From a virus (taxonomy: Duplodnaviria > Caudoviricetes), in IMG/VR virus record IMGVR_UViG_3300025018_000136, positions 13,062-77,061 of that record: DNA of 64,000 nt; one strand, given 5' to 3'. Both the position numbers and the translations under genes were made by a program. Below the pieces are notes generated by a model. It worked only from the letters and a program-made list of their open reading frames with translations, made no database searches and was not told the DNA's origin. Shown one piece after another: positions 999-33,218 of this stretch; positions within the stretch are counted from its first letter, which is position 1; each line of letters opens with the position of its first letter.

Positions 999-1889
999 TG
1001 CGGAGAGCAACCATTGGAAAATATGGAAATGTGTAACCTTGTAGAGACTTATCCTGGAAAACACGACACTTTAGCTGAATGGATTGAGACGCTCAAATAC
1101 GCATATCTATATGCTAAAACAGTGACTTTATTGCCATCGCATAATGAGATTAGTAATGCTGTAATGATGAGAAATAGACGTATTGGTTGTAGTATGAGTG
1201 GTATCACACAAGCGTTTACTAAGTTTGGTAGAAGAGCAATGCTTGAAGCTTCAGATAAAGGATATAATAAGATACAAGATTGGGATAAAAAATATTCTGA
1301 TTGGCTTTGTATTCCTAGAAGTATTAAAGTTACAAGTATTAAGCCAAGCGGAACTGTTAGTTTGCTTGGAGGAGTAACTCCAGGAGTCCACTATCCTGTT
1401 AGCGAATATTATATTAGAAATATTAGATTTCAAGAAGGGACACCTCTATTAGATAAGCTTAGAGAATCTGGCTACAAAGTAGAAAAAGATTCTTATAGTC
1501 TTAATACTTGGGTTGTTAGTTTTCCAGTTAAAGAAGAGTTCTTCGATAGAGCTGTTACAGAAGTATCTATTTGGGAACAACTAGAAAATGCTGCCCAGAT
1601 TCAAGAATATTGGGCTGACAATCAAGTGAGTGTGACAGTTAGTTTTAAACCAGAAGAAGCAGAACAAATAAAATATGCTCTTGAAATGTATGAGAGTAGA
1701 TTGAAAAGTGTTAGTTTCTTACCTCACAAAGAGCATGGTTATGTTCAAGCACCATATATTCCTATTACAAAAGAAGAATATGAAAAGATGAATAAAGAAA
1801 TTAGTGATGTTCGCGTCAAAGACAACGTCCACGACCAAGTTGAGAAATTTTGTGACGGAGATACTTGTCTTGTTGAGATTAAAAAATGA
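3..1889 (+). CDS. nrdJ: Class II (adenosylcobalamin-dependent, monomeric type) ribonucleotide reductase, 5'-truncated by the window, intein-containing
   Basis: Frame is open from nt 3. C-extein has CGEQPL (active-site Cys), RNRRIGCSMSG, SIKPSGTVSLL and a C-terminal Cys pair (FCDGDTC). Confidence 0.93.
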   Translation, partial: EKLEGQKFYVKSIDGSISTAECFKSKNDKELIEIEFNKGISVKCTEEHRWPIYKAQKSEGTLIKTYAKDLVVGDLIPLSRNEPPRITDGNNDLTIDDGFFLGYLLGDGWISTRKSENNVGEKVLGFTFGKDSLHLSDKILNTLNEFGSKCNVTINDKGYGNIQTSNQSVIKKIEETYGWCGKDKIPTSVWTSNDRFIHGFIDGLLSSDGCVSKNTIILVTSRKNLAKEFTKLISFFGIKSSILETTTTGNFPNKKDYDKTYTVYRIKFSGTQFLMSGLTISHKEKQNIKKGSYIQKSNTIKNIKRIPNEDVWDITVYDDTHVFPCEYVYTGNCGEQPLENMEMCNLVETYPGKHDTLAEWIETLKYAYLYAKTVTLLPSHNEISNAVMMRNRRIGCSMSGITQAFTKFGRRAMLEASDKGYNKIQDWDKKYSDWLCIPRSIKVTSIKPSGTVSLLGGVTPGVHYPVSEYYIRNIRFQEGTPLLDKLRESGYKVEKDSYSLNTWVVSFPVKEEFFDRAVTEVSIWEQLENAAQIQEYWADNQVSVTVSFKPEEAEQIKYALEMYESRLKSVSFLPHKEHGYVQAPYIPITKEEYEKMNKEISDVRVKDNVHDQVEKFCDGDTCLVEIKK

Positions 1890-7497: not shown

Positions 7498-10400
7498 GTG
7501 TATTTGGTGGAGTCTAAGGAAAACGAGAAGAATACGGATATATTCGTTTTTGGTCGAAACGAACGTGGTGAGAAGCAGGTTAAAAAAATAACTAACTTCT
7601 TTCCGTACTTCTACGTTTCCGAGGACTCCACTGTTCCTTCTGATTATAGGATAACTAAAATAGAAAAAGGCCACAAAAGTATTCTTGGAGAACCTTTAAA
7701 GAAAATATATTGTAGAAAACAAGGAGATATAGGACAACTTCGTGAAAGGTTCACAAAGCATTATGAAGCAGATATTCCAGTCACTCAAAGATATATAGTT
7801 GATGAAGTAGGAGAAATAGACCCTTATAAATTAAAAACTTTATATCTAGATATAGAACTGAATACAAAGGTTGATTTTCCAGATATGTTAGACCCAGACC
7901 AAGAGGTTGTATGTATATCATTTATTGATGATTTTACAAATAAACCATATACAATCCTTTATAAACCAAAAGACCACGACATTATTCCTAAACCAACACC
8001 AAATCTTAGGATAGTAAACAGTGAAGAAGCTTTACTAGCAGCTACAATAAATTATATCAAAGACTCAGACCCAGACATTATAAGTGGTTGGAATTGTTTA
8101 GATAAAGATACACACATACACACACTAAACGGATTAAAAACTCTCGATAATATTTCTGTAGGAGATATTTTGGAGAATGGAGATTCCGTATTAAAAAAAG
8201 CGCATAGTAAAAAAAGAGTTGTTGAATTTGGTAGCAACTTTGGCATTATACGAACCTCTAAAGACCACAAATTCTTGGTTGTTGATACACCATATAAATA
8301 TAAATCATTGCTAGCATTGAAAAAAGAGAAAGGAGAATTCAAAAAAGTAGAAAATGTTAAAAAAGGATTCTTAAAATTAGAATATGATACGAATAAAAAC
8401 AAAGATACGGACATATCAGACTTTGATTTGTATTTGTTGGGCATAATATATTCTGATGGAACAATTGGAAGGAATAGAATAAGCGTGTATAATAATAATA
8501 TTGATATAATAAATCGTATTTATAAAAATAGAGAAGAAAATGATGCATCTGTTATTACTACAGATAAAAGACACACAAACACAACCTTCAGAATAACAGT
8601 AAAACGAAAAAATATTAAAAATCTAGATATAGTTTATAATGGATATAAAAAAGAACTTAATATAGAAAAACTATCAACTCTTTCACCAAGACAATTTGCT
8701 GTATTTTGTTCCGGTCTTATTGATGGAGATGGTAGTTATTCAATGATTCAGGTAAACCAAGAGACATCATATAAAGAAACTAATGGTTTTCACAATCTAT
8801 TAATATCAAACGGAATTATAGGGTCTAGACACAAAACTACTGGGCAATATAGTAATAGATTTCATATAATATCCGTAGAAAACGATGATGTTCTATCAGC
8901 ACTAGAAAATAATGTTATAAACTCATATAAAATAAAAAAAATTAAGAAATCAACAAAATTAAACAGAAGTACTAAAATACCAAAATATTTTATAGACCGC
9001 AAAGAGAAAACAATATATACGTATATAACTACCAATAATATAACAGATGACTATGCAGATATGGTAGATATAGAAACTACATCACATACGTTTAAGACAC
9101 CATTTATTACACATAACTGCGACCATTTCGACCTAGTTTATCTTATAAGACGTATGGGTAAACTTGGAATAGAATATGGGGAAATGTCACCAATGTGGGG
9201 AGTTTATATTGATGAAAAGTTTGAAGATGTTACTATTAAAGGACGTGTAGTTCTAGATATGATGAAAGCTTACATGTATTTCAGAGGCATCTCAAATCAA
9301 GGACGTGCTGAATCTTATTCGTTAGAGTTTACTGCCCAAGACGTTTTAGGGCGTGGAAAGATTGAACATTTAGAATCTTTCTACGACATGTGGGTTAATT
9401 ATCCAGACAAGTTAGTAGAATATAACGTACGCGACGTTGTATTAGTTAATGAGATTAATAGGGAGTTGGAGATTATAGATTTCTTTAACTCTATTAGGTC
9501 AAAAGCTTGTACGCAACTTAAAAACATATATCAAACAACAGCTCTTATTGATGGATTACTATTAAACAGAACAAAGGGTAAAATGGTTTTACCAAGTAAG
9601 AACTTTGTTGGTGGAGATAAATATACAGGAGCATATGTATTTGAACCAAAACCTGGGGTGTATAATAATATACTTGCGTTAGACGTAAAAGGCATGTATC
9701 CTAATATTATTAAAACATTTAATATGGGGTATGAAACTTTCAACAAAGAAGGTTCAATAAAAATTACGAAAGACATAGCATTTGATGACGGCATAGGTTT
9801 AATATCGGAAACAATTAGAGATTTACAAGAAGAACGTGCTCATTATAAAAGTATTATGAAAAAAACTAAAGATAAAAGAGAGTGGAAAGTTGCTCACTTT
9901 AGACAGTACGCAGTAAAAGTTCTTATGAACAGTATTTATGGATATCTAGGTTTTCCAAAGGCAAGACTTTATAAAAAAGAAGTTGCTTTTGCAGTTACTC
10001 ATATGGGGCAAAAACTTATTAAATGGACTCAAAAATTCTTAATAGACAAAGGATACGACATTGTTTATGGTGATACTGATAGCGTCTATGTTCAATCTAA
10101 GAAGAATACTAAAGTGTCAATGCTTATAGAAGGGAATAAATTGGTTCAAGAAATCAATGAATCTTATAAAGAGTTCTCTTCTAGTTATGGAGCTAAAGAT
10201 TGTACTTTAGAGATGGAGTTTGAAAAAGTTTTTAAATCGATTATTTTTGTTGAAAAACGTGGAGGAAATGGTGGTGCAAAGAAGAAGTACGCATATATTC
10301 CTTTATGGATTGATGGTAAAGATGTAGATGGTAGTGTTGAATACACAGGTTTTGATACAGTACGCTCAGACATACCAAGAATAGCAAGAGAAGTACAAAA

Positions 10401-10845
10401 GAATGTTATTGAGATGATTCTTAACGGTGGTAGGAGACAAGACATTGAAAATTATATAGTTAGTATTGATAAGAAGATTAAAGCCAAAGAAATTCCAGAT
10501 GAAGAAATAGGATTTCCAAAAGGCTTAAGTTCTCATCTTGAAGAATATAAACAAGCAAACCCGGCAGTAACTGGCGCGTTATATTCAAATAAATATCTTG
10601 GAACTAGGTTTACTAAAGGTAGCAAACCAAAATGGATATATGTTAGGTCTGTACCAACAGGTTATCCACCAACACATGTCATAGCTTATGATGAATTCAT
10701 ACCTGAAGGGTTTACTGTAGATTATAAAACACTTAATGATAAAATATTTAAGATGAAATTAGAATCAATTTTTAAAGCGGCTGGTTTCGGAGAGTTCCCA
10801 GACGTGGATTCAAACAACTCAAAACTTAGCGCATGGGGATTATAA
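7498..10845 (+). CDS. polB: Family B DNA polymerase, intein-containing
   Basis: ExoI DIE, ExoII GWNxxxFD, ExoIII YNVRD, DVKGMYP, KVLMNSIYG, YGDTDS, KKKY; GTG start after GGTGA. Confidence 0.96.
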   Translation: MYLVESKENEKNTDIFVFGRNERGEKQVKKITNFFPYFYVSEDSTVPSDYRITKIEKGHKSILGEPLKKIYCRKQGDIGQLRERFTKHYEADIPVTQRYIVDEVGEIDPYKLKTLYLDIELNTKVDFPDMLDPDQEVVCISFIDDFTNKPYTILYKPKDHDIIPKPTPNLRIVNSEEALLAATINYIKDSDPDIISGWNCLDKDTHIHTLNGLKTLDNISVGDILENGDSVLKKAHSKKRVVEFGSNFGIIRTSKDHKFLVVDTPYKYKSLLALKKEKGEFKKVENVKKGFLKLEYDTNKNKDTDISDFDLYLLGIIYSDGTIGRNRISVYNNNIDIINRIYKNREENDASVITTDKRHTNTTFRITVKRKNIKNLDIVYNGYKKELNIEKLSTLSPRQFAVFCSGLIDGDGSYSMIQVNQETSYKETNGFHNLLISNGIIGSRHKTTGQYSNRFHIISVENDDVLSALENNVINSYKIKKIKKSTKLNRSTKIPKYFIDRKEKTIYTYITTNNITDDYADMVDIETTSHTFKTPFITHNCDHFDLVYLIRRMGKLGIEYGEMSPMWGVYIDEKFEDVTIKGRVVLDMMKAYMYFRGISNQGRAESYSLEFTAQDVLGRGKIEHLESFYDMWVNYPDKLVEYNVRDVVLVNEINRELEIIDFFNSIRSKACTQLKNIYQTTALIDGLLLNRTKGKMVLPSKNFVGGDKYTGAYVFEPKPGVYNNILALDVKGMYPNIIKTFNMGYETFNKEGSIKITKDIAFDDGIGLISETIRDLQEERAHYKSIMKKTKDKREWKVAHFRQYAVKVLMNSIYGYLGFPKARLYKKEVAFAVTHMGQKLIKWTQKFLIDKGYDIVYGDTDSVYVQSKKNTKVSMLIEGNKLVQEINESYKEFSSSYGAKDCTLEMEFEKVFKSIIFVEKRGGNGGAKKKYAYIPLWIDGKDVDGSVEYTGFDTVRSDIPRIAREVQKNVIEMILNGGRRQDIENYIVSIDKKIKAKEIPDEEIGFPKGLSSHLEEYKQANPAVTGALYSNKYLGTRFTKGSKPKWIYVRSVPTGYPPTHVIAYDEFIPEGFTVDYKTLNDKIFKMKLESIFKAAGFGEFPDVDSNNSKLSAWGL
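8095..9117 (+). mobile_element. Intein (341 aa) with LAGLIDADG endonuclease in the PolB ExoII motif
   Basis: SGWN|CLDKDT, TSKDH block B, LGIIYSDG and GLIDGDG, ends ITHN|CDHFD. Confidence 0.92.
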
Positions 10846-17662: not shown

Positions 17663-17941
17663 TTATATAACAAACCTCGAAAATACTTCTACCGCCTTTT
17701 CACCCAATGCAAGTAAAGCTAATACAGCTATTAACGCTATGATTAGTTTATAAAACTTACCAGACATAAGTTTCAACAAAACCATTACTTCTCTATTATG
17801 TAATATATTCTGGTCATTCATCTGCAATATGTTATCTGTCATCTTATCTAGCTTTGAAGCTACATCAACCGTCAATTTGGCGTTCATTTTCGAAAGTTCT
17901 TTATATATTTCTATTGCTTCTCTATCTTCCACTATAATCAC
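17663..17941 (-). CDS. Coiled-coil protein with C-terminal TM helix
   Basis: Amphipathic N-terminus, hydrophobic C-terminus; follows the tail hub gene. Confidence 0.5.
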   Translation of the reverse strand: MIIVEDREAIEIYKELSKMNAKLTVDVASKLDKMTDNILQMNDQNILHNREVMVLLKLMSGKFYKLIIALIAVLALLALGEKAVEVFSRFVI

Positions 17942-20900
17942 TTGTAAAGTAAAGTTACACTTTCATATGTAGGAGACGTTGCTGAAGTAGTGCTTCTATG
18001 AAGCTCCATTCTAAATCCAAAGCTACTACCAGTATTCGTGAATGTGTGAACCTCTCCTGGCGTGTAAGTCTCCCAATTGCTACCACCATCAGCAGTAACC
18101 GTATATATATCATTATCTATTAAAAGGTTTGAATAAGTTCTGAACTCGCACTGAGACACAACTTTATCAGTAATTCTAAAATCAGAAGTTGCTGTGCCAA
18201 CAGTAGCTGCTGAGACCAACTTAAGTCTTCCACTAACTTCTTCTGTATTAAGATGAGTCATAATTGATGGGTCTTCGTCAAAATAGACTGTATAACTATT
18301 TTCCATTGAATTAATATTAGATATTGTGTCTCCAATCTCGTCTGGGTTAAGTTTCTCTACAAAGATATCGGATATACCAACGTTCTTCTTAGATATTTCT
18401 ACAGATGTTGTAAACCCACTGTTACTTAAATTATGAGTAAATGATTGAACCCTGTTATATCCAGTTATACCACAATTAGCAACTGTTACAGATATAAGTT
18501 CTCCTGGGTTAAGAGTAGATAAACCATACGATGTAACTTGGCCACTGAAAACATCTTCTATTCCTTTAGCTAGTTCAAAGTCTGCTTTATCTTGAACCTC
18601 GTCTGTTGTAGTAAGGTCTCCATCAGTAATTATAAGGTCTTTAATCCACAAATCTGCTTGTGATGCGTCATCATTTTCAGATTTAAGCAATATAATGTTG
18701 TCCGATTCTTGTTTACCATAAACAAACACTCTGTTTGAAATTGCTGTGTTGTCTTTACCATAACTATTTACACCAATAAGGTTAGAACCATAAGATATAG
18801 ATTCATCATTGTTTATTACATCGTCTTGTGTAAAAGTTCTAAGATACCACTGCTCACCTTCATCAAAATACCACATATAACAGTCTAAGCCAGCACGTTT
18901 AAATATGTCTGTTATTACAGTCCATGCTTTTTTATGCTGATATGAAATATTAATAAGCTCTGTTGGATAATCTGTAACAGATGTAGACCAACTAATTAAA
19001 CCAGTCCCAGGATTATAAGTAGCTTCAGCCCACTCATCTCCATCCCAGAAAACCATAATAATGTCTGGAAAATCATTATATAGAATTTTTCCAACTGATT
19101 CTGCTGCAGTGGCTGCAACATGTGCTCCAGTAATAGTCTTATCAATAAGCTCTGGATAATCACGCCCATCTATATCTATATAGAATCCACTAGACATATC
19201 TGCTCCATAAGATACATTATCAATGTAACCTTTAAATAATAATTGAGCAAGTGTATTTAAGCTAGCATAACGAATAGCGTTTCCTTCATTATATAAAACA
19301 CTTACCTCGTTTTCACTCAATACTCTATTAGTCCAAAGTGCAATCTCGTCTATCTGAGAAGAAAGCCCATAAGAATAAGTCGTAGGAGAACCTATATATT
19401 TAAACGTTAAATCTGCTACCATCATCTCGCCAAAACTATTAATGTGAGAACCATCAATATATAAGTTAACGTTTGCTGAAGTTTGTTCATTATAAAGATT
19501 ACTATAAAGAGTTGTTATCTCATCATCTGTCAACGCTTTATCAAAAACCATAATATCATCTATTAATCCGTTGAAATAATTACCTGACACATATCTCCCA
19601 ACATAGAAATTTAGATTAGTTGCTGAAGGAATATCTGTTCGAATGCTAGTATTTGTTTTATGTTTTATACCATTAACATATCCTATTAATTCATCGTTTG
19701 TTTTACTAACAGTAAACGCAATATGAACCCATTCTCCAAGATAATCATCTATGCCTACAGTGTCGCTAAGAGGATAAAAAGTGTCCCCACCAGTCCCATA
19801 TAATCTAGCATGCCATCTAGAACCAAGAGAATAATTTAAAAGTTCCCATTTTGTAGTATTAGCAACAATTCTACTATCTACAGAAGGAGCAATTGATGCT
19901 TTAACCCATAAAGCTACAGTAAATTCATCATTATCAACATCTTCAAAACTAGAAGTTGAAAGATACGACGTAGAACCATTAAAGCTCATACAAGAATTTA
20001 CAGAATTAAATCTGTTAGTACCATCAGTTGCGTTAGTATTGGTTAAAGAACCCCCATAACTACTAAAATCATCAATAGTTGTAGATAAATCGTTATAAGA
20101 AAACGGATAATAACATCTTAAAGTAGCATCTGTCATATCCCAAGGAGTAGTTGTTGTTAATACAACATGATGCCAGGCAGTATCATTAAGTGTATCACTA
20201 TCACCTATAGATACTATAGCATTATTAACATCTGGCTCTATTCTAATATCGTTCCCGCTATCTATCTCAAAATGCCTATTGAAAGAATTTGGCGCATAAT
20301 TAAAAATAGTTTCATGCTTACCCTCTTCGCCACGTTTAATCCAGAAAGATATTGTAGAACCATTTTTATTAATAACAACATAATCAGTTAATTCTACATA
20401 TGAATTAAAATAACCATTAATATTATATTTTTGGCCTAACATATCTAAACTAGAAACTATCTTTCCAGTTGTATTATACGGAATAGTCATTCTATGATTA
20501 TTTGTTATAGTGTATAATTTGCTAACTTCAGAGTCTGTTAACATAGATTTCACAAAGAATACGTCATCTATGTAACCCTCAAAAGTAGAAGGTGCAATAT
20601 GATTAGAAGTAATATTTCCACCAATTTCAGCATTTCCTGCTCCATTACAAGTTTTAAAATCTGGATACAACACATTTGTTCCTTCTAAAACTCCATCTGC
20701 GTATACATAAATTCTTTTAGATATTCTTATATCATCATTACCGTCATTATAAATCTGTAATATCTCATCGTCTGTCAGTGCCCTAGCCCAAATAGCAACA
20801 TCGTCAATAGCTCCATCCATAAGATTAGTTGTAGAATCATATGCTCCTATGTTTAAAGTTGTGCTTGTAGTAGCGTTTCCTCCAGTAACAGTAGTTGTTA

Positions 20901-23466
20901 ATGTTTGTTTAACACCATTAATAAATAGTTCAACGTCTCCAACAACTCTAGTAGATGTGGTTGTTACTACATTTGTTCTTGCTACAACATGATACCATGT
21001 GCCTGTAGTTATTGTGCCTACAGAATAATATCTTCTTCCAGCAGTAGAACCCTGAGCTTCAACTCTTATTCTTCCATCTGTTTGAACATCAAACGTATGA
21101 TATCCGTTATAAGAAGTTATTGTTCTAACGCTACTTAAATTATCAACCTTAATCCAAGCAGAAGTTGTTTGTATATCTCTACTGTTTACACCGCTAAAAC
21201 TAGTTTTCTGAAGATACTGATTTACACCATCTAAAACAACAGCATTACTAAATTTACCGCTAGTATAAGTAGGACTATTATATTCAGTCATATCGTTGCT
21301 TCCGTATTCATCACCAGCGTCACTTTCCATCCAATAAACTGATACTAAATCTGTAAATAAAGATTCTTGTGCGCCGAATACACCAACAACTTGATGCCAC
21401 TCATTATCGGATAAATTAGTAGTACCTAAAACAGTTACGTCTTGGCCTGTTATTCTATCTTCTACGTGCCAACTAGCATATCCTGTTGTTACAGCAACAA
21501 CAAATTGATAATTATCATTGTTATCAGTAGCGTTTCCGTTATCAGACTTATATATAAATGTTCTGCCTGCAGTGTCTGTTTTAATCCATGCACCAATAGT
21601 GAACGACATATCATCAACTGGACTAAGTCCTCCATCAGTATTATCTAAAATAATATTGTTCTTAATGCCGTCAAAATAATAACATTTGTTTAAACTACCA
21701 AATCTATCTGTTGCAAGTTGAGCAGAATCTATATTTATGTTCTCTGTACCAGAACCGCTATTATAAGCTCTGGCTATATCACCGGAATTAAGTATACCAT
21801 CATAAATTCTAAGGTCATCTATTGAGCCATCAAAAAAGTCACTAGGAGTAGCTGTGTCCCACTCTTGCCCAACAACAAACAAATCAGTGTTTGCAACTGT
21901 TACAGTTGTAGATAAATCAGTATCTACAGAATTACCATCAACGAAAAGTTCCCAGTCACCAGCACTATGGTCATAAGTAAAACCAACATGATGCCATTGG
22001 TCATCTCTAAGATTAGTAGAACCAGTAACTATTGGTGTAGAAACATTTTGAACTGAAATATAACCAGAAGTATTAATAAAAAACAATATTCTATTTGTTA
22101 CTCCTGAAGAATCACTAACTCCTAGAATCATATCGTTTCCAGAACCAGAAGAGTTCGCTTTAATCCACGTAAAACATGACATATCAGAAGCTGCCAGCTC
22201 ATCAGCAATATCACCATAAACATTTTTTACTACGCGCGCATAACCATCTACAGGTTCTCCCCATGTAATAACTGCTGTGTTTGCGTCTGTTATTGATATA
22301 TCTGTTGGCTCTATTCTATGGTGACTATTATCAAAACAAGCTATAAGAGGATATTCATCATTTAAAGAATGTGTAATATTCCACGTTGTACTAGAAGTGC
22401 CATTAGTATAAGTATAATCACCAGTTCTAAAACTAACGATAGCATATCCTGACTGAGAACTATCAAAAGTAAGGGTTCTTATATCTGCGCTAGTATAATT
22501 ATCAGTTAATGGTTCAATAACATATCCATTTAAATCATATACTGTAACTATTGGTCTAGAAACATCAAAGTTGTGACTTATAGTCCAAGTTGTACTACTA
22601 ATTGTTTGCGTATGTAAATAATCTTCAGCAACACTAGTCCTAAGAATTCTGACGTATCCTGTTGTTGCCTCTCCAAACTCTAGATAAAGAGAGTTCTCAT
22701 CAAGTGCACGTGCAACTTCTGGCTGAATAATATTTCCAGAATCATCAAAACATTCAAAGTTTACATATTTAAAATTAAGATTGTGATTAACGAACCACGT
22801 AATACTACTTGTAAACGCATATAGGTGAATACTGGACGTATCTGATGGATTAAGTTCTATATAATCTGTACTACCATCAAACTCAAATGCATCATTAATT
22901 TTACCAGTAACGTTTAACTCATTAGTATTATTCTGAGAAAGACCATCGAACCCATTAGCACTAGTATCAGTAACCGTCTTAGAATCTGTATTATCATTCA
23001 TTCTATATTGGGCTACTAGGTTTGTTGAAAGAGTACCATTATGAGATGGAGTATAACTCACATCGTTAGCATTACCATTAAACCCGTAAACTGCCTCTGC
23101 TCTAATCTGAAAAGTGCCATTGTTTCCTGAAATCTCATCAATAATATAATTACCACTATCACATTTATAATAGTGGTCAAGACCAGTTAAAAAATTAATA
23201 TCTTGAGGAACACGATATCCTCCATAGATTGACACCAGTTCGCCGCCACCAAATGTGTTTAAAAACTCACCATTACTATTAGTAACCCTAAGATTAAATC
23301 TACCAAGACTATCAGTCACAGATTTAACAACTTGACCACTAATCACATTGTTATCACTAGTAGTACTGCTCTGAGAATCCATAATTGTATGTACAACATC
23401 AGAATCATCTTTTATTTGAACCCTAAAGCTTGGACGGGCAGCATCAGTCTCAGTCAACGAAGTCAT
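17938..23466 (-). CDS. Tail hub/central spike protein (1842 aa) carrying five LamG-like domains and three short beta repeats
   Basis: Hub-like LVSIYGGY...LLFKGYID split; ISNRVFVYG; multiple WHHV/WYHV/WVHI and IDD(V/L)xIW/Y LamG motifs; TWxIxH repeats. Confidence 0.75.
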   Translation of the reverse strand: MTSLTETDAARPSFRVQIKDDSDVVHTIMDSQSSTTSDNNVISGQVVKSVTDSLGRFNLRVTNSNGEFLNTFGGGELVSIYGGYRVPQDINFLTGLDHYYKCDSGNYIIDEISGNNGTFQIRAEAVYGFNGNANDVSYTPSHNGTLSTNLVAQYRMNDNTDSKTVTDTSANGFDGLSQNNTNELNVTGKINDAFEFDGSTDYIELNPSDTSSIHLYAFTSSITWFVNHNLNFKYVNFECFDDSGNIIQPEVARALDENSLYLEFGEATTGYVRILRTSVAEDYLHTQTISSTTWTISHNFDVSRPIVTVYDLNGYVIEPLTDNYTSADIRTLTFDSSQSGYAIVSFRTGDYTYTNGTSSTTWNITHSLNDEYPLIACFDNSHHRIEPTDISITDANTAVITWGEPVDGYARVVKNVYGDIADELAASDMSCFTWIKANSSGSGNDMILGVSDSSGVTNRILFFINTSGYISVQNVSTPIVTGSTNLRDDQWHHVGFTYDHSAGDWELFVDGNSVDTDLSTTVTVANTDLFVVGQEWDTATPSDFFDGSIDDLRIYDGILNSGDIARAYNSGSGTENINIDSAQLATDRFGSLNKCYYFDGIKNNIILDNTDGGLSPVDDMSFTIGAWIKTDTAGRTFIYKSDNGNATDNNDNYQFVVAVTTGYASWHVEDRITGQDVTVLGTTNLSDNEWHQVVGVFGAQESLFTDLVSVYWMESDAGDEYGSNDMTEYNSPTYTSGKFSNAVVLDGVNQYLQKTSFSGVNSRDIQTTSAWIKVDNLSSVRTITSYNGYHTFDVQTDGRIRVEAQGSTAGRRYYSVGTITTGTWYHVVARTNVVTTTSTRVVGDVELFINGVKQTLTTTVTGGNATTSTTLNIGAYDSTTNLMDGAIDDVAIWARALTDDEILQIYNDGNDDIRISKRIYVYADGVLEGTNVLYPDFKTCNGAGNAEIGGNITSNHIAPSTFEGYIDDVFFVKSMLTDSEVSKLYTITNNHRMTIPYNTTGKIVSSLDMLGQKYNINGYFNSYVELTDYVVINKNGSTISFWIKRGEEGKHETIFNYAPNSFNRHFEIDSGNDIRIEPDVNNAIVSIGDSDTLNDTAWHHVVLTTTTPWDMTDATLRCYYPFSYNDLSTTIDDFSSYGGSLTNTNATDGTNRFNSVNSCMSFNGSTSYLSTSSFEDVDNDEFTVALWVKASIAPSVDSRIVANTTKWELLNYSLGSRWHARLYGTGGDTFYPLSDTVGIDDYLGEWVHIAFTVSKTNDELIGYVNGIKHKTNTSIRTDIPSATNLNFYVGRYVSGNYFNGLIDDIMVFDKALTDDEITTLYSNLYNEQTSANVNLYIDGSHINSFGEMMVADLTFKYIGSPTTYSYGLSSQIDEIALWTNRVLSENEVSVLYNEGNAIRYASLNTLAQLLFKGYIDNVSYGADMSSGFYIDIDGRDYPELIDKTITGAHVAATAAESVGKILYNDFPDIIMVFWDGDEWAEATYNPGTGLISWSTSVTDYPTELINISYQHKKAWTVITDIFKRAGLDCYMWYFDEGEQWYLRTFTQDDVINNDESISYGSNLIGVNSYGKDNTAISNRVFVYGKQESDNIILLKSENDDASQADLWIKDLIITDGDLTTTDEVQDKADFELAKGIEDVFSGQVTSYGLSTLNPGELISVTVANCGITGYNRVQSFTHNLSNSGFTTSVEISKKNVGISDIFVEKLNPDEIGDTISNINSMENSYTVYFDEDPSIMTHLNTEEVSGRLKLVSAATVGTATSDFRITDKVVSQCEFRTYSNLLIDNDIYTVTADGGSNWETYTPGEVHTFTNTGSSFGFRMELHRSTTSATSPTYESVTLLYK

Positions 23467-23468: not shown

Positions 23469-25298
23469 TTATTCACACACCATGCATATACCATTTATTG
23501 AAGGATAACCAGTTGTAGGACTTGAATCTTTAGGATTAAGTCTCACAAGTAATTGTGTAGGAGAATATTCAAAAGTTGAAAAACTACTCATTGTAGTTCC
23601 GTCATTTGCATTAAGCCAACCAGTGTCCTCTTGGTCTATATATTTATCAACATAAATGTTGTCAACCCAGCAAGTACTAGTTCTTCCACCAGAGTAATAC
23701 TCCCAACCAATGATTTCTATTCTAAGAGTAGCAGAAGATTTTCTTGAAGATGCTGTAACATCTCCACTTCCTGTAGTCCAAGAAGAATCATTTTGTGTAG
23801 CACCAGAACCAGCAGTCTTAGTCCTAGTATAAACAACATCATCATCTATATATATATTAAGCTGCACACTACCGTTTGTAGTATTTAACCAATTAGACAC
23901 ATGAATCTTATTCCAACCTCTAGTATCTACTATCTGGTCAGCATGAACGTATGCACCTTCATTGTTAGACTGACTAGATTCAGCTGTTTTAAAAGACCAC
24001 GTACCGTCTTCTGCAGCATCACTAGAACGTGTATAAGAAGACCAACTACCACTAATAGAAACATCCCACTCATCACCTAGAGCGTTTTCAAAACTATAAT
24101 TCTCTATTTCTGTAGTTAAAGTACTATTAGTTGTTGATAAAATTCTATAATCGACACTGATACCTTCTTCCCAATCTTCTACTTTATAAGCAAGAAGACT
24201 AGCACCTATACCAGAAGGTACCCTATTAGCTGGAATATCGTGGGTAATTATAGTTGAAGGATTTTCTGTAGCTGCAGTAAAATCTGGAATACCATAAGTA
24301 GCATAATAACTGTTTGTATAATAACTATAATCTGAAGAAGGACTACCATCTGGGTTAGAAAAAACCCAAGATATTGCTCCTTTAGTTAATATTATTGCAT
24401 AAGCATATCTAACACCATAATTACTATCAGTTCTACTTGGTCTTAATTCTAATTCACATGTTGCTGGATTAGTTATTTGGTCAGAAGATGTATCTATTCC
24501 TGTCTCATCACTTACTGGTTGTCCAGTATAATTTAGATTAGTACTGCTTGGCATTTCCCACTGAACGTACGGATTATAACTATCAGTATATCCGTTAAGA
24601 TAAGACCAACTATCAACTAAATTATCAGACGTGTTCTCAAAAGTACCAGTATATCTAAACACAGGCTCAGAATAACCTATTGACTCTTTACCATAAAGAT
24701 ATGCCAAATGACATCTTCTACCAACATCATCTGTAACAGATGTCTTCATAGCAGTAATATCTGGACATTTAAGAACAGCAGGATTAGTACCATTAGTACC
24801 ATAAAACAGGGTTTTTATAATTTGAGCATGTCTAACATCATACGTACCAGTACTACAATAAACAACCCATTTACCAATGTCAAATTCAACAGCTGTACAA
24901 TTATTAATATTGAAAACGCTTTCTGAAACTGCTGTAGCCTCAATAATAACATATGGCATAGTTAAATCTATAGCTTTATATTTGTCAGTATCAAAATCTG
25001 CATTTGTATTTATAGTATCTACAGTTCCAAATCTTCCATCTGTATCAGTATATGCCTCAACATAAAAATCATTTCCGTTACTGAACGTTATTGCTCTATC
25101 AATAGACTGATTAATAGTGTTTATTCCTTCAACTTTAAACGCTATGCCTGAATCCATTGGAGAACTAACTTCTTTGATAATACTGTTTGCATCCTGGAAT
25201 TTAAGATTATCACTGGCCGCATCAATAAACATACTGTCATCTACTGCGGAACCAACTCCTATTTGTGAAAAAACTTTTGAACCAGATACTTTTACCAT
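23469..25298 (-). CDS. Tail-associated receptor-binding protein, paralog 1
   Basis: Shares N-terminal MVK...F.D..DN..KF and YTDT.G motifs and C-terminal D.GWL...P..L.V.L.P...P.I.G motif with the next two genes. Confidence 0.6.
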   Translation of the reverse strand: MVKVSGSKVFSQIGVGSAVDDSMFIDAASDNLKFQDANSIIKEVSSPMDSGIAFKVEGINTINQSIDRAITFSNGNDFYVEAYTDTDGRFGTVDTINTNADFDTDKYKAIDLTMPYVIIEATAVSESVFNINNCTAVEFDIGKWVVYCSTGTYDVRHAQIIKTLFYGTNGTNPAVLKCPDITAMKTSVTDDVGRRCHLAYLYGKESIGYSEPVFRYTGTFENTSDNLVDSWSYLNGYTDSYNPYVQWEMPSSTNLNYTGQPVSDETGIDTSSDQITNPATCELELRPSRTDSNYGVRYAYAIILTKGAISWVFSNPDGSPSSDYSYYTNSYYATYGIPDFTAATENPSTIITHDIPANRVPSGIGASLLAYKVEDWEEGISVDYRILSTTNSTLTTEIENYSFENALGDEWDVSISGSWSSYTRSSDAAEDGTWSFKTAESSQSNNEGAYVHADQIVDTRGWNKIHVSNWLNTTNGSVQLNIYIDDDVVYTRTKTAGSGATQNDSSWTTGSGDVTASSRKSSATLRIEIIGWEYYSGGRTSTCWVDNIYVDKYIDQEDTGWLNANDGTTMSSFSTFEYSPTQLLVRLNPKDSSPTTGYPSINGICMVCE

Positions 25299-26389
25299 TA
25301 TTCAGTATACACCCATATTCCTTCTATTGCAGGATATCCATAAGTTGCTGTAGTCCCAGGAGTATCAAGTTTAACAAGAACCTTAGTAGGTTCACTGGTT
25401 AAAGCTGTATATCCAGTAACTTCTTCTGAACCAATCCACCCACTATCTTCACCAGCATTAGCAATTTTATATTGAACTGTATCACCAGTCTCCCAATTCG
25501 TATCATTAATAAACGCAACACCAAAACCAGATGAAGGAGTAGCATTAAATGTTCCACTATCGACATCGTGTGTTATATAACAATCTCCAGCAACAGTGTC
25601 TGTGGAATAGCTAAATATACTTACACGTAACTCGTGCCCGGATGCTTCAAGATAACTAGCTGCATAAAACAACAATCTTATACCTTGCACACTGGCATTT
25701 AAGTATACTGTGCCACCACTATAAATAAATACGCCACTACTAGAAAAAAGGGTTTGTACATCACTCCACGTTGAACCATCATATGTTTGCAATATTACAC
25801 GATTAGTTCCACTATATCCAATTCTATTAATATCCATATAAAAATTAACAGAAACATACTGTATGGTTTTAGCACTAAAAGTAGTTCCAAAAGCTATTGT
25901 ATTAGCCTGAAGCTGAGTATTTGTAGGAGCACAAGTAGCATATGTAGAGGTATCATTATCATACCCATTTGAAGCATTAGTCCACGTAACAATTGCAGCA
26001 TGAGGAGTATCGCCAGAAGATTCGTTATTTGTTATATTACGCAAATAACCTATTCTATCTGTTTCTCCATCAGTATCACAATATGCAAAAAAAGAATTAG
26101 CTAAGTCTATAGTATTGTATAAACCATTAGAGTCTGTGTATAATTCAGAAAAACCATCCTTATCATCTGCAGAAAAATCTACTGTCCTATCTTTCATTTG
26201 TCTAATTCTATTAAGACCTGATAAAGTTAATAGTTTGTTCTGAGATAGTTGTTTTTCTATTTTTAATATGTTTGAATTAGAATCTACAAATTTTATCTTG
26301 TTATCACTAGAATCAAGAAATACTGAATTATCTTCAGCTGCAGTACTTGATATACCATTAAACAGTAATGACCCTTGTGTCTTAACCAT
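25298..26389 (-). CDS. Tail-associated receptor-binding protein, paralog 2
   Basis: Same termini; central F5/8C-like segment (WTNASNGYDND, LQTYDGSTWS). ATG at 26389. Confidence 0.6.
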   Translation of the reverse strand: MVKTQGSLLFNGISSTAAEDNSVFLDSSDNKIKFVDSNSNILKIEKQLSQNKLLTLSGLNRIRQMKDRTVDFSADDKDGFSELYTDSNGLYNTIDLANSFFAYCDTDGETDRIGYLRNITNNESSGDTPHAAIVTWTNASNGYDNDTSTYATCAPTNTQLQANTIAFGTTFSAKTIQYVSVNFYMDINRIGYSGTNRVILQTYDGSTWSDVQTLFSSSGVFIYSGGTVYLNASVQGIRLLFYAASYLEASGHELRVSIFSYSTDTVAGDCYITHDVDSGTFNATPSSGFGVAFINDTNWETGDTVQYKIANAGEDSGWIGSEEVTGYTALTSEPTKVLVKLDTPGTTATYGYPAIEGIWVYTE

Positions 26390-26391
26390 TT

Positions 26392-27450
26392 TTATTCGGC
26401 GTAACACCACACCCCCAATAGACTAGGACTTCCAGAAACAGGGCTTCCTGATGGGTCAAGTTTTAAAATCAACGTCTCAGGCTCACCATTACTAAAAGCA
26501 GTAAAAGATGTAAAATCATCTATATTTAACCAACCACTATCATCGCCACCAGTATTAGTTAATTTGTATTGTATAGAATCTCCACTAGTAAATAAATCTG
26601 AAACAGTTGTAGCAAAAGCTTTAGATATAGAGGATGAAAATGTTCCAGTGGGAATATTGTTATAAATATAGCTGTCTTCTGTTTTTGAAGAATATTCTAA
26701 AGAATATACGTAACAATAATTACTAGTACCGCTACCAGCAGCATTCATATCAAAATATAACCTTATTCCTTGCACACTAGCATCAATGTTTATTACCCTC
26801 TCAATATCATCTGAGTGTGTTCCTAAATAATTTTGATTTACAAGAGTGGTGTGGTTTGACCATGTACTACCATTATATGTTTGTAAATAGATATGTACGC
26901 TTGTATTACCAACGCTTTCATGACTATAATAAAAAAATTTTGTAAACACTTTACCTATTGTCCGTGCACTAAACGTTTTACCTATCTCAAAATCAGCTAT
27001 ACTTTCAGAAATACTTTTACTAGCATAAGTAGTTGTATCTCCATCAAACGCATTCGCATAATTTGTAAATGAGTCTGGGTCATGGTTAGTATCTCCGCTA
27101 GGAAGACTATTACCACCCTTCCAAATATTTAAATTAATTGCATCATAATAAGAATCAGAAGTGTCTCTATCAAAAGTGTTAAATCTTCCGTTTGTATCAG
27201 TATACGCTTCTAAATAACCTTTAGTTCCAGAGGCATCAACTGCAATAGCCTTATCATAGGCTTGTCTAATAAGATTTTTTCCAACAAGACTAAAAGAAGT
27301 ACTAACTGGCAAAGCATTTGAGAGTAAAGATATTCCTGTTCCGTTCTTAAATTTAAGAACGTTATCACTAGAATCTACAAATATTGAATTAGTTTCAGCA
27401 TTAGCAGAATCCATACTAAGTAATTCTTTAGCTCCGTAAATTTTAACCAT
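26392..27450 (-). CDS. Tail-associated receptor-binding protein, paralog 3
   Basis: Same termini; central FTNYANAFDGD, LQTYNGSTWS. Confidence 0.6.
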   Translation of the reverse strand: MVKIYGAKELLSMDSANAETNSIFVDSSDNVLKFKNGTGISLLSNALPVSTSFSLVGKNLIRQAYDKAIAVDASGTKGYLEAYTDTNGRFNTFDRDTSDSYYDAINLNIWKGGNSLPSGDTNHDPDSFTNYANAFDGDTTTYASKSISESIADFEIGKTFSARTIGKVFTKFFYYSHESVGNTSVHIYLQTYNGSTWSNHTTLVNQNYLGTHSDDIERVINIDASVQGIRLYFDMNAAGSGTSNYCYVYSLEYSSKTEDSYIYNNIPTGTFSSSISKAFATTVSDLFTSGDSIQYKLTNTGGDDSGWLNIDDFTSFTAFSNGEPETLILKLDPSGSPVSGSPSLLGVWCYAE

Positions 27451-28126: not shown

Positions 28127-31100
28127 TTATTGTGTCCTCAATTGTCTTTTAATTTCCATCACAAACTCGTTAGCAAAACTACTTGGGTTACCATTAGCAC
28201 CATTGATAGTTATGTTTCCAATAGATATTGATTGGCCTCCACCATTTCCAAGAGGACCTTCACCATTAAATCCCATAATAGTGTCATTCTGCGCAAATTC
28301 TATATATTTTCCATCGTTTGTTAAAAGGAAATCCTTAGGTGTATATCTTGTTATCTTATATTCCTTTCCGCCAAGTCCTGTTTGAGTTGTTGTTGATGCG
28401 TTATATTGAGACCTATCAAAAGAACTACCAGATGCACCGCTAGAACTTCTTCCTATAGCATTAGAATAAGAGAGAGCATTGCTAGCAAGATTTGCATACT
28501 TAGTACTAAGAGTATCTATCTGGGGTATTAGTTTATTAACTTCAGCCTCTTCAAATCTCATAGCATAAGAAATTTGCTCATGAGCGTCTCTCTGTTGGTC
28601 TAAAATTTCTTTTAAATCGTCATATTCTTGCTGTTGAGTTTTAATTTTACGCTCCAATCTATCTCTCTGATTCCACTCACCACCAAGAGAACTTATAATT
28701 GACTCAGCAGAACTAGCTGTACCATTCTTTCTATCCTCATCAATCTGAATAGCATTCTGCACCTGATTATGCATATTTCCAAAATATACGTCTTGAGCAA
28801 GTTGTAATCTACGAAGATTAGTTTCAGCCTCAGTTTGACCACCACCAGTGTCCATAGCTGAACTACTAAGTAATAATGTTTGATGCGCTTGAACAGCACT
28901 AGTTGTGTTCTTAGCAAGTTCATTTCCTTCAACTATTAAAGCACGAATATGCTCCCTTACAGTTGTCTGCCAAGCTTCAAAAGCAGTCTGAGATGTAGTT
29001 GCTGCATTAGTCACATTATCTATAGCTGTAACAACCCCACTATAAGCGTCTCCAGTGTTACCTACAGCTGCTGCAATAAATGCCTGAGCATCTGATACCC
29101 CAAGAGCTTCAAGTTCTTGTTTCTTAATAACTAATTCTTGTTGTTGAATAACTCTTGAAAATGCAGTTTCCATCTTAAAATTCATAGATGTAAGTCTTTT
29201 AATCTCATCAGTAGTAGAAGCTAAATCTTTCTTATATTTATCTAATACTTTTGCTACACCTTCTATTGCAAAATTAGTCTCATCCATAGCAAGACTAAGT
29301 AATGTAAGCGTGTCTTTATAATTATTAGTTCGTTCAGTAACATCATTCAACCTATCGAGATATTTCTCCATAGCCTGTAACGTGACAGAACCAAATTGGT
29401 CTGATATAGATTCTTGAACATCTGAAAGTTCCGACGTAGCAGCTATAAGACGTTCTAGATTTCCAGATGCCAAAGCAGAATCATATTCTTCATATGCGCT
29501 TTTTAAATCCTGTAAAGCTTCTTGATTATTCTTATATTTATCTTGTGCTTTAGTTTGATTTAATAGCTCGTTTCTTTCTACTTCATTCATCGCAGAAAGA
29601 GCATCTATTAACTGTTGAATATAAATAGCGGTTAAACCTATATCATTATTTGTATCCTTTAATAATTTTGATTGGTACTCTAATATCTCATTATATTGGT
29701 TGCCATAGATTGTTCCTGACGCTAAAGCTTCATCTAAATGTTTCATAGAATTTGTATAAGCTTTCATTTCATCATTATTATTTAAAATAAGATTCCACGA
29801 ATCAGTCCATCCTTTCTTAGCTTTACCCCAAAAACCAGCACTCTCACTAGCCAAATCTTTTATTATAGATTTATTTTCTTCAGCAATATTCTTATTTGTT
29901 CTAAAAGCTATATATGCCTCAGCCATTAAAGAATTACCAGAGCGCATCTCTTCATTTACATTCTTAAGATTAATATAATAATCATCTGCTCCGTTTGCTA
30001 AAGTAATAAGAGCGTTACCACCAATTCTACCAGCTGCATCAAATGCTGCTGATGATTTTTCTACAGAACTACTCATTCTATTAAGACCATCAATTACTCT
30101 CTGGAACGCAACATCAGCATTATTCTCCAATTCATTCCTAAAAGACTCAACTGACATTCCTGCAATATCTGCAAATTCTTCAACATTGGAAGACATTCTT
30201 AAAAATAAATTGCGCAACCTAGTACCAGCACGTTCTGCACTCATACCAGCGTCAACCATAGTTGCTATACCAGCAGCACTTGTCTCAAAAGAAATTCCTA
30301 ACACTTCTGCTTGTGCTCCAACTCTAGTAAGACCACCAATAAGGTTACCAACTGTTGCTGCTGTAGTGTTCTCTAATTTGTTCAATGAACTAGCTAGTAA
30401 AAACGTACTTTCAATTGGAAGATTAAATGCATTAGTAATCTTAGCAAAATTAGTTGCAACATCTTCAGCTGTCATATCAGTAACGAAACTTATAATAGAG
30501 ATTGCTTGAGTAAATCTAGCAATATCTTCTGTCCCTCTAATTCCCATCTGCCCAGCTACTTTAGCAATCTTAGCAAGTTCATCTGCGGCTACAGGAATAG
30601 TTCTAGCCATACTATAAAATTGAGATGAAAGACTTTCTGCCTCAGCCTGACTAAGACCTGCAGTCTTAGTAACGCCAACCATAGCTTCTTCCATCTTCTC
30701 ATATTCACCTATAAGCATTTGGATTGGCTTATAAATAATATACATAGCAGCACCAATTGCTGTAGCTGCGAAAGCTATGTTTACCATAGACCAACGAAGG
30801 TTATTAAGAGCCCTATTCATCTTATTAAGTGCAGGATAAGCTGTTTCCCATTGGCCAGTAGTAAGTTTTTGCCAATGAGACATCTTTTCCTGTGCGCGAA
30901 TATTAGATGTAAGTTGTTTAGAATGTTTCTCTGTATATCCTGCAGCTACAAGCATACCTTGTGCTTGTTTAGAAGTTGTAGATTGTAAGCGCTGTGTAAC
31001 CCCAGTAAGTTTATTTGTCTGCGATACAGCTACTCCAGTAACTTTATTGTTCTTATCACGAAGAATAGAATACTTATTAATTATTTTAGCAGACTTATCT

Positions 31101-31276
31101 TCTTCTTTAGAAAGTTTCTGAACAGCCTTCTCAGCTTTAGTAGAGGAAATTACTCCTTTATCATTAGCTTGAGCTGCTTTCTGTGTCTTATTAATATAGT
31201 CGTCTAAAGCTTTTGTGGCAGCCTTTTCATTCTTTGTTTCAAAGTTTGTAACTATATTTATTCTGTGGTCTGACAT
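28127..31276 (-). CDS. Tape measure protein (TP901-like core)
   Basis: 1049 aa helical protein; VTKTAG..ELAKIAKVAGQMGI..AERAGTRLRN; position after the chaperones. Confidence 0.9.
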   Translation of the reverse strand: MSDHRINIVTNFETKNEKAATKALDDYINKTQKAAQANDKGVISSTKAEKAVQKLSKEEDKSAKIINKYSILRDKNNKVTGVAVSQTNKLTGVTQRLQSTTSKQAQGMLVAAGYTEKHSKQLTSNIRAQEKMSHWQKLTTGQWETAYPALNKMNRALNNLRWSMVNIAFAATAIGAAMYIIYKPIQMLIGEYEKMEEAMVGVTKTAGLSQAEAESLSSQFYSMARTIPVAADELAKIAKVAGQMGIRGTEDIARFTQAISIISFVTDMTAEDVATNFAKITNAFNLPIESTFLLASSLNKLENTTAATVGNLIGGLTRVGAQAEVLGISFETSAAGIATMVDAGMSAERAGTRLRNLFLRMSSNVEEFADIAGMSVESFRNELENNADVAFQRVIDGLNRMSSSVEKSSAAFDAAGRIGGNALITLANGADDYYINLKNVNEEMRSGNSLMAEAYIAFRTNKNIAEENKSIIKDLASESAGFWGKAKKGWTDSWNLILNNNDEMKAYTNSMKHLDEALASGTIYGNQYNEILEYQSKLLKDTNNDIGLTAIYIQQLIDALSAMNEVERNELLNQTKAQDKYKNNQEALQDLKSAYEEYDSALASGNLERLIAATSELSDVQESISDQFGSVTLQAMEKYLDRLNDVTERTNNYKDTLTLLSLAMDETNFAIEGVAKVLDKYKKDLASTTDEIKRLTSMNFKMETAFSRVIQQQELVIKKQELEALGVSDAQAFIAAAVGNTGDAYSGVVTAIDNVTNAATTSQTAFEAWQTTVREHIRALIVEGNELAKNTTSAVQAHQTLLLSSSAMDTGGGQTEAETNLRRLQLAQDVYFGNMHNQVQNAIQIDEDRKNGTASSAESIISSLGGEWNQRDRLERKIKTQQQEYDDLKEILDQQRDAHEQISYAMRFEEAEVNKLIPQIDTLSTKYANLASNALSYSNAIGRSSSGASGSSFDRSQYNASTTTQTGLGGKEYKITRYTPKDFLLTNDGKYIEFAQNDTIMGFNGEGPLGNGGGQSISIGNITINGANGNPSSFANEFVMEIKRQLRTQ

Positions 31277-32126: not shown

Positions 32127-33218
32127 TTACTTATATGATGCGTCTGAATCAACAACATAAATCTTTGCAGATTCTACGAATACGCCAATAGATTGGCTAA
32201 CGATGTCTTCTGGAGAACCAGAAATATTCATAGTGTCAAATTTTGTGTTGTTAAGTACAACTCTCATCCAGTCATCTGTAGCAGTTTTACTTCCAGATAT
32301 AACCCCACTTCTTACGAAATCGAGAACAACTTGGTATGAAGTAAAAGTGTTCTGAGGTTCTGTAGCACCAGTAGCGCCTAGGAACATCTCATATTGGCTC
32401 TTGTCTTCAAAATGAACTGTTAAGTTAGACTCATATTCACGCCCTTTAGGAATAAGACTCTTAAGTGAGCGAATATTGTCTGTAGCACTACAAGTACCAG
32501 ACACATACCAATTTGCTTCTAGGTTGTTATTAACGCTAAAATCAAAGCTGTTAACTTTACAAAGTCTAGAACCAGAATCAATTGCTGTATACGCAGTAAT
32601 AGCTCCAGTTGTAGCATAAACTACTCCTTGATAAAAGACGTATGGGTCAACAGTTAACTCACTAACGCTTTCTGCTGCTGCTGTACTAATAGTTACACTC
32701 TTTCCAATCCAATCGACAGAAGTCATAACTGGTTCATCAACAGAACCACTAATAGTCATACTGTTTACTCTACAACCATCATAAATTCTCTTTAGGTTGT
32801 AAGTTCCTGGGTTTCCACCGTCTTCATCATCTGTAAATTCTAATGTAAAACTTGGAAAACTATTTGTTTGAGGTGCAGCTGCACTGCCCATAACGTGTAG
32901 ATACGTTGCTTTACTTGCATCATGATATCTTGGGCCTATATCTACTCCTGCAGTAGTACCACTATCTTCTCCAATTGCCTGTCTAATCATTGAACCGCCC
33001 TGTAAGTAATAATCGAAGCTTCCAGAAACTTCAAACTTACCAGGAACAATGTTACTAAAATCTCTGCTTCCGCCCATAGTTCTAATCTTAATAAGGTTGT
33101 TTGTCTCAGTTGGGTTAACCGTCTGAACAAGTCCAATTGATTGATTTGCGGGCATAGCAGAACCATAGTTTGTTTCATTTGCGAAATACAAACTTTGTTT
33201 ATATCCTGTATTTACCAT
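32127..33218 (-). CDS. Major tail tube protein
   Basis: ETNYG, PGKFEVSGSFDY, FPSFTLE, YDGCRVNSMTISG pattern; followed by T-tracts. Confidence 0.82.
   Translation of the reverse strand: MVNTGYKQSLYFANETNYGSAMPANQSIGLVQTVNPTETNNLIKIRTMGGSRDFSNIVPGKFEVSGSFDYYLQGGSMIRQAIGEDSGTTAGVDIGPRYHDASKATYLHVMGSAAAPQTNSFPSFTLEFTDDEDGGNPGTYNLKRIYDGCRVNSMTISGSVDEPVMTSVDWIGKSVTISTAAAESVSELTVDPYVFYQGVVYATTGAITAYTAIDSGSRLCKVNSFDFSVNNNLEANWYVSGTCSATDNIRSLKSLIPKGREYESNLTVHFEDKSQYEMFLGATGATEPQNTFTSYQVVLDFVRSGVISGSKTATDDWMRVVLNNTKFDTMNISGSPEDIVSQSIGVFVESAKIYVVDSDASYK

Follow-up and report, generated by a model that had tools for sequence, protein, structure and literature searches.

A single gene in a 64,000-nucleotide stretch of viral DNA (positions 13,062 to 77,061 of IMG/VR record IMGVR_UViG_3300025018_000136, class Caudoviricetes; hereafter the window) encodes P0001, which is probably a tail-tip hub protein with one loop bearing a tree of nested LamG domains and small modules, predicted to take part in multivalent binding of host glycans. 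The gene is a single uninterrupted open reading frame of 1842 amino acids (aa) at window positions 17938-23466 on the minus strand, about 5.5 kilobases (kb) long. In a first-pass annotation made from the sequence, five LamG domains, termed A to E, had been described as interrupting one another within a split hub in the order hub[A[B[C[repeats]][D]][E]]. Four independent lines of sequence evidence support this bracket order: continuity of profile coordinates across the breaks, hub homologues that lack the insert together with one in which the A and B bodies are uninterrupted, the count of N-terminal segments and domain bodies, and full-length alignments of the reassembled domains.

Residues 1398-1842 of P0001 were used as a query to search for hub homologues among shorter proteins. 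Of the 38 matches returned, most have about 534 aa and share 43-51% identity across the whole query. In BLASTP alignments, about 35 homologues of about 534 aa aligned contiguously to two distant parts of P0001, aa 15-82 and 1391-1842, bearing out the earlier proposal that the hub is split by the insert. In P0021, for example, residues 24-91 correspond to aa 15-82 of P0001 and residues 80-533 to aa 1391-1842. At the junction the sequence is GGE-V-x-x-YAD-x-TDATT-LIFRGKIDNV in the short forms, whereas in P0001 GGGELVSIYGG...INFL is separated by about 1,315 residues from LLFKGYIDNV.

The fold of the hub was assessed on P0021, an insert-free homologue that is 51% identical to aa 1391-1842 of P0001. 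Its AlphaFold2 model, calculated from 30 family members, has a mean predicted local distance difference test score (pLDDT) of 82.6. In the model, the break falls in the turn of residues 93-98, between hairpin strands 86-92 and 99-113. The insert of P0001 takes the place of this six-residue hairpin turn, and the hub fold is kept. Foldseek matched the P0021 model with a probability of 1.0 to more than 40 hub structures. These include the hub of an extracellular contractile injection system (7aef, best E-value 2e-21) and the baseplate hub of Haloferax tailed virus 1 (HFTV1; 9h4p, E-value 8e-20), as well as Mu gp44, T4 gp27, VgrG, phage 80alpha Tal and T5 pb3. Among 30 family members, 19 matched the Pfam family YQBQ-like (PF24032) at an E-value of 0.01 or less (best 8.5e-9) and three matched Prophage_tail (PF06605). 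The C-terminal hub part of P0001 itself scored 15.1 bits with YQBQ (cut-off 27), and the sequence-profile match of the hub family to the 9h4p hub was weak (E-value 0.003). As modelled on its insert-free homologue, P0001 is a baseplate hub of the gp27/Mu gp44/gpD type. The hub gave no match by tblastn in 50,697 records of isolated phages, and no hub relatives were found in a scan of IMG/VR.

Other members of the hub family carry inserts elsewhere. P0029 (744 aa) has a LamG domain at the position of P0001 residues 1535/1540, while in P0024 (704 aa) and P0035 (691 aa) the loop corresponding to residues 40-49 of P0021 holds a beta-rich insert of about 170 aa. Since these relatives bear different inserts and use a second and a third loop, the hub appears to serve as a display scaffold. 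The final C-terminal part of this family (window 17941-18330, minus strand; about aa 1715-1842 of P0001 and about residues 411-533 of P0021) is an all-beta domain beyond the gp27-like core, which it follows after a low-confidence linker. From the model, this extra domain may be a further binding domain.

As a whole, P0001 matched the Pfam family Laminin_G_3 (PF13385) in seven stretches (E-value 1e-84, 282.6 bits; cut-off 27.6). The protein was cut at the boundaries given in the first-pass annotation and the pieces were scanned individually against Pfam; each boundary was found to coincide with that of a domain piece. The order of the pieces is A1 B1 C1 [repeats] C2 B2 D B3 A2 E A3 (Table 1). 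The scan of D (aa 699-912) covered profile positions 2-150 (E-value 2e-20) and that of E (aa 1108-1327) positions 1-150 (E-value 8.5e-25). The other pieces matched parts of the profile: C2 (aa 418-580) positions 14-151 (E-value 7e-21), B2 (aa 581-700) positions 14-89 (E-value 8.5e-8) and A2 (aa 991-1107) positions 4-88 (E-value 5e-10). As isolated pieces, these five scored 32.9-88.1 bits, all above the cut-off. Two C-terminal parts fell below it, B3 (aa 913-990, positions 91-151, E-value 9e-6) with 26.4 bits and A3 (aa 1328-1400, positions 90-151, E-value 3e-4) with 21.3 bits.

The profile coordinates run on over the breaks. In B they pass from 14-89 across D to 91-151, in A from 4-88 across E to 90-151, and in C from 1-13 across the repeats to 14-151. 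Because of this continuity, D is taken to interrupt B, and E to interrupt A, at the same point. In both hosts the insert sits in the turn that links the WHxVV strand to the LYxDG strand after it. C is broken by the three repeats directly after its FDGxxDY strand.

Whether A1 and B1 are the first strands of A and B decides between four levels of nesting and two. An independent LamG hidden Markov model (HMM) was built from 160 contiguous domains of unrelated proteins, with P0001 and P0002, a long homologue described below, excluded. A2 and A3 alone start at HMM position 45; with A1 added, the match starts at position 14 and gains 10 bits. This score was reached by none of 200 shuffles and by 5 of 200 random P0001 windows, whose locations were not checked. 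Addition of B1 to B gained 18.6 bits, reached by none of 200 shuffles and none of 200 random windows, and addition of C1 to C gained 33.5 bits. The equivalent segment of P0002, B1', added 26 bits to its B domain.

A sub-profile comprising the first 42 HMM positions, the N-terminal segment, matched P0001 at aa 94-119, 125-147, 145-180 and 703-737 and, weakly, at 1113-1146. One extra match at 875-893 had a score near zero. The first three correspond to the successive LamG starts A, B and C that had been read from the sequence in the first-pass annotation. Five N-terminal segments are thus set against five bodies, with three consecutive segments ahead of any body and in mirror order.

The reassembled domains were compared by BLASTP with 167 other LamG-rich proteins. 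Reassembled B aligned over residues 1-221/222 with a contiguous LamG domain of P0196 (38% identity, E-value 6e-23), and 200 of its 310 alignments span both junctions. For reassembled A, residues 2-207 aligned with P0179 and residues 6-210 with P0187, with both junctions spanned in 48 of 123 alignments. Residues 2-219 of reassembled C aligned with P0154. The reassembled domains A, B and C are 212, 222 and 223 aa long, compared with 194-220 aa for the contiguous D and E and for X', a further domain of P0002; the reassembled and the contiguous domains align over their whole length, and the conserved columns all match up. Judged by these alignments, A, B, C, D and E are each a complete jelly roll with all strands present.

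The three repeats of about 68 residues, which the first-pass annotation had picked out by a TWxIxH motif, occupy aa 213-282, 283-350 and 351-418. They align with one another and with three repeats of P0002, and the six share the pattern Y-x-H-T-Q...T-W-x-I-x-H-N-L...P...D...G...I-E-P...G-Y-V-R-V. In PHROG they matched phrog_21918 (E-value 7e-33), phrog_16122 (virion structural protein) and phrog_2647 (head decoration). No Pfam match and no usable match in the ESM Atlas was obtained, and the repeat profile gave nothing significant against PDB sequences. The AlphaFold2 model of the repeat region consists entirely of strands, with a pLDDT of about 55-77. The repeats are presumably further surface or binding modules.

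Besides P0001, P0002 (1579 aa) was the only long member of the hub family found; it comes from two other samples and its hub is 47% identical. The two proteins were compared by global alignment and with the domain HMM. The core of P0002, A1-B1-C1-[three repeats]-C2, is the same as that of P0001. Comparison with a homologue having fewer inserts had been suggested as a check, and P0002 lacks D and E exactly at the predicted junctions: the bodies of B (aa 789-958) and A (aa 961-1131) each run without a break. D and E are therefore discrete insertions (or deletions). In addition, the N-terminal loop of A in P0002 holds a further complete LamG domain, X' (about aa 117-310). From this comparison, the tree has undergone at least three gains or losses of branches since the viruses carrying P0001 and P0002 separated. 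The proposal that repeated loop insertion built the structure fits this difference between the two long proteins, in which D, E and X' were each gained or lost.

The paralogous domains of P0001 are 16-27% identical to one another, and C is 36% identical to its orthologue. Each LamG domain of P0001 has LamG domains outside the protein at 30-40% identity. On these identities, the branches may be old or may have been acquired from other LamG genes. An origin by recent internal duplication was rejected, given the low identity of the paralogues, the lack of DNA repeats and the closer outside domains. Domain E is closest, outside its own protein, to LamG domains of P0098 (40.5%), P0184 (38%) and P0115 (36.5%), with its paralogues at 23% or less. 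These values hint that E was acquired by recombination and not by internal duplication.

LamG domains had been stated to be normally tandem, and this was borne out in the 167 LamG-rich proteins, where 977 of 1065 domain matches are complete and contiguous. The pattern of an N-terminal part, a full domain and a C-terminal part was seen in none of the 167, a sample picked by similarity to E and in which nesting near the domain ends would be missed. A few LamG domains in these proteins hold non-LamG gaps of 70-215 aa.

P0001 is the last and largest tail-tip protein, and in a tail module of siphovirus type its gene is the final large one. The portal, major head, minor tail and tape measure genes lie in the same run of minus-strand virion genes (Table 1). 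After the tape measure the order is 98, 103, 352, 370 and 609 aa, then P0001, three open reading frames of less than 100 aa and a switch of coding strand. The hub gene thus lies downstream of the tape measure with five smaller genes between, and the gene order recurs in a related virus, L001. No fibre gene follows P0001, and the same is true of L001.

Table 1. Parts of P0001 and virion genes of the same strand (window coordinates).
Feature	Window position	Strand	Basis or remark
Hub N-terminal part, aa 1-93	23188-23466	-	Closes with first strand of the broken hairpin; matches residues 24-91 in 534-aa homologues
A1, N-terminal segment of LamG A, aa 94-124	23095-23187	-	Sub-profile aa 94-119; +10 bits
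B1, N-terminal segment of LamG B, aa 125-148	23023-23094	-	Sub-profile aa 125-147; +18.6 bits
C1, N-terminal part of LamG C to FDGxxDY strand, aa 149-208	22843-23022	-	Sub-profile aa 145-180; +33.5 bits
Three ~68-aa beta-rich repeats within LamG C, aa 209-418	22213-22842	-	Mutual alignment and alignment with P0002 repeats
C2, remainder of LamG C, aa 419-580	21727-22212	-	Laminin_G_3 14-151
B2, middle of LamG B, aa 581-700, ends at WHQVV strand	21367-21726	-	Laminin_G_3 14-89; joined to B3 equivalent in P0002
D, complete LamG in B hairpin, aa 701-912	20731-21366	-	Laminin_G_3 2-150; lacking in P0002
B3, C-terminal part of LamG B, aa 913-990	20497-20730	-	Laminin_G_3 91-151
A2, middle of LamG A, aa 991-1107, ends at WHHVV strand	20146-20496	-	Laminin_G_3 4-88
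E, complete LamG in A hairpin, aa 1108-1327	19486-20145	-	Laminin_G_3 1-150; lacking in P0002
A3, C-terminal part of LamG A, aa 1328-1397	19276-19485	-	Laminin_G_3 90-151
Short linker and rest of hub, aa 1398-1842 and stop	17938-19275	-	Hub resumes LLFKGYIDN at about aa 1409; 43-51% identical to most ~534-aa homologues
Tape measure	28127-31276	-	phrog_28, E-value 3e-39
Minor tail protein	32127-33218	-	Virion gene run
Major head protein	43553-44560	-	Virion gene run
Portal	47106-49769	-	Virion gene in same minus-strand run as P0001

The tail genes of 609, 370 and 352 aa between the tape measure and the hub (window 23469-27450, minus strand) gave no Pfam or PHROG match, and in L001 their place is occupied by one gene of 685 aa. 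A phosphoesterase and a terminase-like protein are encoded in the plus-strand flanks, together with a family B DNA polymerase and a fragment of a ribonucleotide reductase that contains a LAGLIDADG domain. In the polymerase (window 7498-10845, plus strand, 1115 aa) the exonuclease and polymerase matches are far apart, separated by a long gap, and an intein-like match is also present in the polymerase of L001. The reductase fragment that bears the LAGLIDADG domain lies at window positions 210-1889 on the plus strand. The long gap and the LAGLIDADG domain suggest inteins. No transfer RNA genes were found on the assembly. Among isolated phages the terminase gave only remote matches, too distant for a host to be inferred. 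The virus is uncultured and siphovirus-like.

The gene would encode a tail-tip hub of the gp27/Mu gp44/Tal-N-terminal type that closes the tail tube of this virus. In place of the six-residue hairpin turn, the hub would carry a tree of plug-in beta-sandwich domains of about 1,315 residues. LamG A would sit in the hub loop, LamG B and E in two loops of A, and LamG C and D in the two equivalent loops of B. The three 68-aa modules would occupy a third loop of C, giving four insertion levels altogether. Hub homology, insertion point, domain content and bracket order are all shown by comparisons at the sequence level. Nesting is possible because the LamG jelly roll has its two ends side by side, which allows one entire domain to be placed in a loop of a second. 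Hubs of the gp27-type fold are trimers. The trimer would present about 15 lectin-type domains and nine small modules on branched stalks at the tail tip, and their most likely role would be to bind glycans on the host surface (cell-wall polysaccharide or S-layer glycans) at adsorption, in a multivalent manner and with low affinity, much as has been proposed for the carbohydrate-binding modules in Dit and Tal of lactic-acid-bacteria phages. We infer the trimer, the three-dimensional tree and the ligand; the assignment as a multivalent glycan-binding adhesin draws on family knowledge and gene position.

Several observations weigh against this reading. An AlphaFold2 model of aa 120-990 (B1-C-B2-D-B3), calculated from an 11-row alignment, has a mean pLDDT of 51.6, with B1, B2, B3 and C1 all below 50. 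In no confident model are A1, A2 and A3, or B1, B2 and B3, packed as one sandwich. When the A domain of P0002 was joined to a reconstructed N-terminal piece (aa 94-116 and 311-330), the boundary of which is uncertain, 5 bits were lost. A1 and B1 score about equally on either body with the LamG HMM, the profile being blind to pairing. Protein binding and purely structural roles are also known for LamG domains. In the AlphaFold2 model of aa 120-990, the repeats, C2 and D have a pLDDT of 55-86 (D about 62-86), and Foldseek matched the confident parts to LamG, LNS and CBM40 lectin domains, including those of neurexin and laminin LG. A phmmer search with A2-E-A3 over the whole library gave 17,052 matches, in which the best stretch was always E alone. 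No collinear nested relative of A2-E-A3 was found among these matches, so a deep alignment of A2 and A3 cannot be built. As for contiguous tandem domains, or halves that fail to form LamG folds, all of the sequence evidence points against them, and the structural models speak neither for nor against. The pairing of A1 with A and of B1 with B is proposed on grounds of topology and parsimony: the two ends of C must meet, so the end of B1 lies beside the start of B2, and the same applies to A. It is unlikely that the nesting is shallower, with D in B, E in A and the repeats in C as single-level insertions, A1 and B1 as mere linker or orphan strands, and the insert as a tandem of N-terminally truncated LamG C, B and A with one insert apiece. 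Although A1 and B1 are short (31 and 24 aa), their sub-profile scores are modest (6.4 and 6.2 bits) and the three-dimensional model is uninformative for both, B2 and A2 start at HMM positions 41 and 45 behind an upstream linker of just 10-12 residues, so neither has a local first strand. Moreover, exactly two N-terminal segments are spare, in the mirror order that nesting predicts; the arrangement is conserved in P0002, as seen in the gain with B1'; and reassembled B aligns from its first residue to a contiguous LamG domain.

It is hardly credible that the gene is misassembled, chimeric or a decaying pseudogene. The sequence does come from a metagenome-type contig of an uncultured virus, assembled as one contig of 77,061 base pairs, but the reading frame is unbroken over its 5.5 kb and the homologue P0002, from other samples, has the same core nesting. 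No DNA repeat within the gene exceeds 26 nucleotides, leaving no long repeats able to mislead an assembler, and the identical protein occurs on three contigs; together these two observations exclude misassembly and recent duplication. Rather improbable, too, is that the architecture is right and the LamG tree serves as something other than a glycan adhesin, namely a spacer or shield at the tail tip, a protein-binding module or an enzyme carrier. Hydrolases and protein-binding LNS domains are among the concanavalin-like folds, and the partial model matched LG domains of neurexin and laminin, but the Pfam families matched are the non-catalytic Laminin_G_3, pentaxin and sialidase-lectin families. 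In addition, P0001 is the final and largest protein of the tail tip and no separate fibre gene lies downstream of it, a position that suggests host recognition, and the analogous modules inserted in Dit and Tal proteins bind host saccharides (PMC7533335). A glycan-binding tree on the hub loop is the probable reading.

Loop-inserted modules in a gp27-like domain have been reported once, in a Tal protein with two inserts and about 800 residues, which was called unique at the time (PMC7533335). P0001 resembles the 'evolved' Tal and Dit proteins of siphophages of lactic acid bacteria, for example the Tal of the Streptococcus thermophilus pac group B, in having a tail-tip scaffold with loop-spliced beta-sandwich modules of carbohydrate-binding type, a retained gp27-like fold and a presumed function in host adhesion (PMC7533335). 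In those proteins, each loop carries one or two single-level inserts of BppA-like or hydrolase-like folds and the decorated domain has about 800 residues, whereas P0001 carries 1,315 residues on one loop, with five LamG domains and up to four levels. There is also no sequence relationship between them (no match in the 50,697 phage records), and the modules of P0001 are LamG and not BppA-like. By analogy, P0001 works like the 'evolved' Tal and Dit proteins, but outside their lineage.

The HFTV1 hub gp44 (PDB 9h4p) is a trimeric tail-tip protein of an archaeal virus with a predicted carbohydrate-binding domain (PMC12494034). It shares its hub fold, as do other hubs of the gp27/Mu gp44/VgrG type, with the insert-free homologue of P0001. 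In HFTV1 the binding domain is appended at the C terminus, whereas P0001 has its domains nested inside a loop, and the two sequences show only a remote relationship. Bacterial and archaeal surface proteins with several LamG domains in tandem (PF13385 arrays) belong to the same domain family, with domains 25-40% identical; these are arranged head-to-tail, while those of P0001 are encoded inside each other.

Recursive nesting is known from the SI3 insert of the cyanobacterial RNA polymerase beta' subunit (RpoC2), where sandwich-barrel hybrid motifs reach six levels and, in the survey of SI3, inserts were generally smaller than their hosts (PMC13114784). P0001 is alike in its homotypic recursion, in A1-B1-C-B2-A2 patterns and in hosts with more than one insert. 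It differs in having LamG jelly rolls of about 210 aa instead of small hybrid motifs, in being a viral surface protein and not a polymerase, in a depth of four as opposed to six, and in the size of its inserts, which are several times larger than their hosts. No account of one LamG domain nested in another was found in the literature. P0001 thus joins two known principles, loop-inserted modules and recursive nesting, and is not a new kind of system.

P0001 would be a clear natural case of one fold repeatedly inserted into itself, to four levels and with five LamG domains, in a viral host-recognition protein. For protein evolution, the LamG jelly roll would, at two or three defined loops, both tolerate insertion and serve as a portable insert, and the hub family gives a natural series from the insert-free 534-aa forms through P0002 to P0001. 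For annotation, standard domain callers read nested proteins as broken or partial LamG domains, which the bracket pattern corrects. It is conceivable, and put forward tentatively, that homotypic recursive insertion of LamG is a general, fast-evolving route to branched, multivalent lectin trees from one tail-tip loop in uncultured, possibly archaeal, tailed viruses. Branches such as D, E and X' would be gained and lost, perhaps by recombination with foreign LamG genes, and would tune the host range. For the biology of the virus, the arrangement suggests how a trimeric tail tip could compactly bear about 15 lectin domains with no additional fibre genes.

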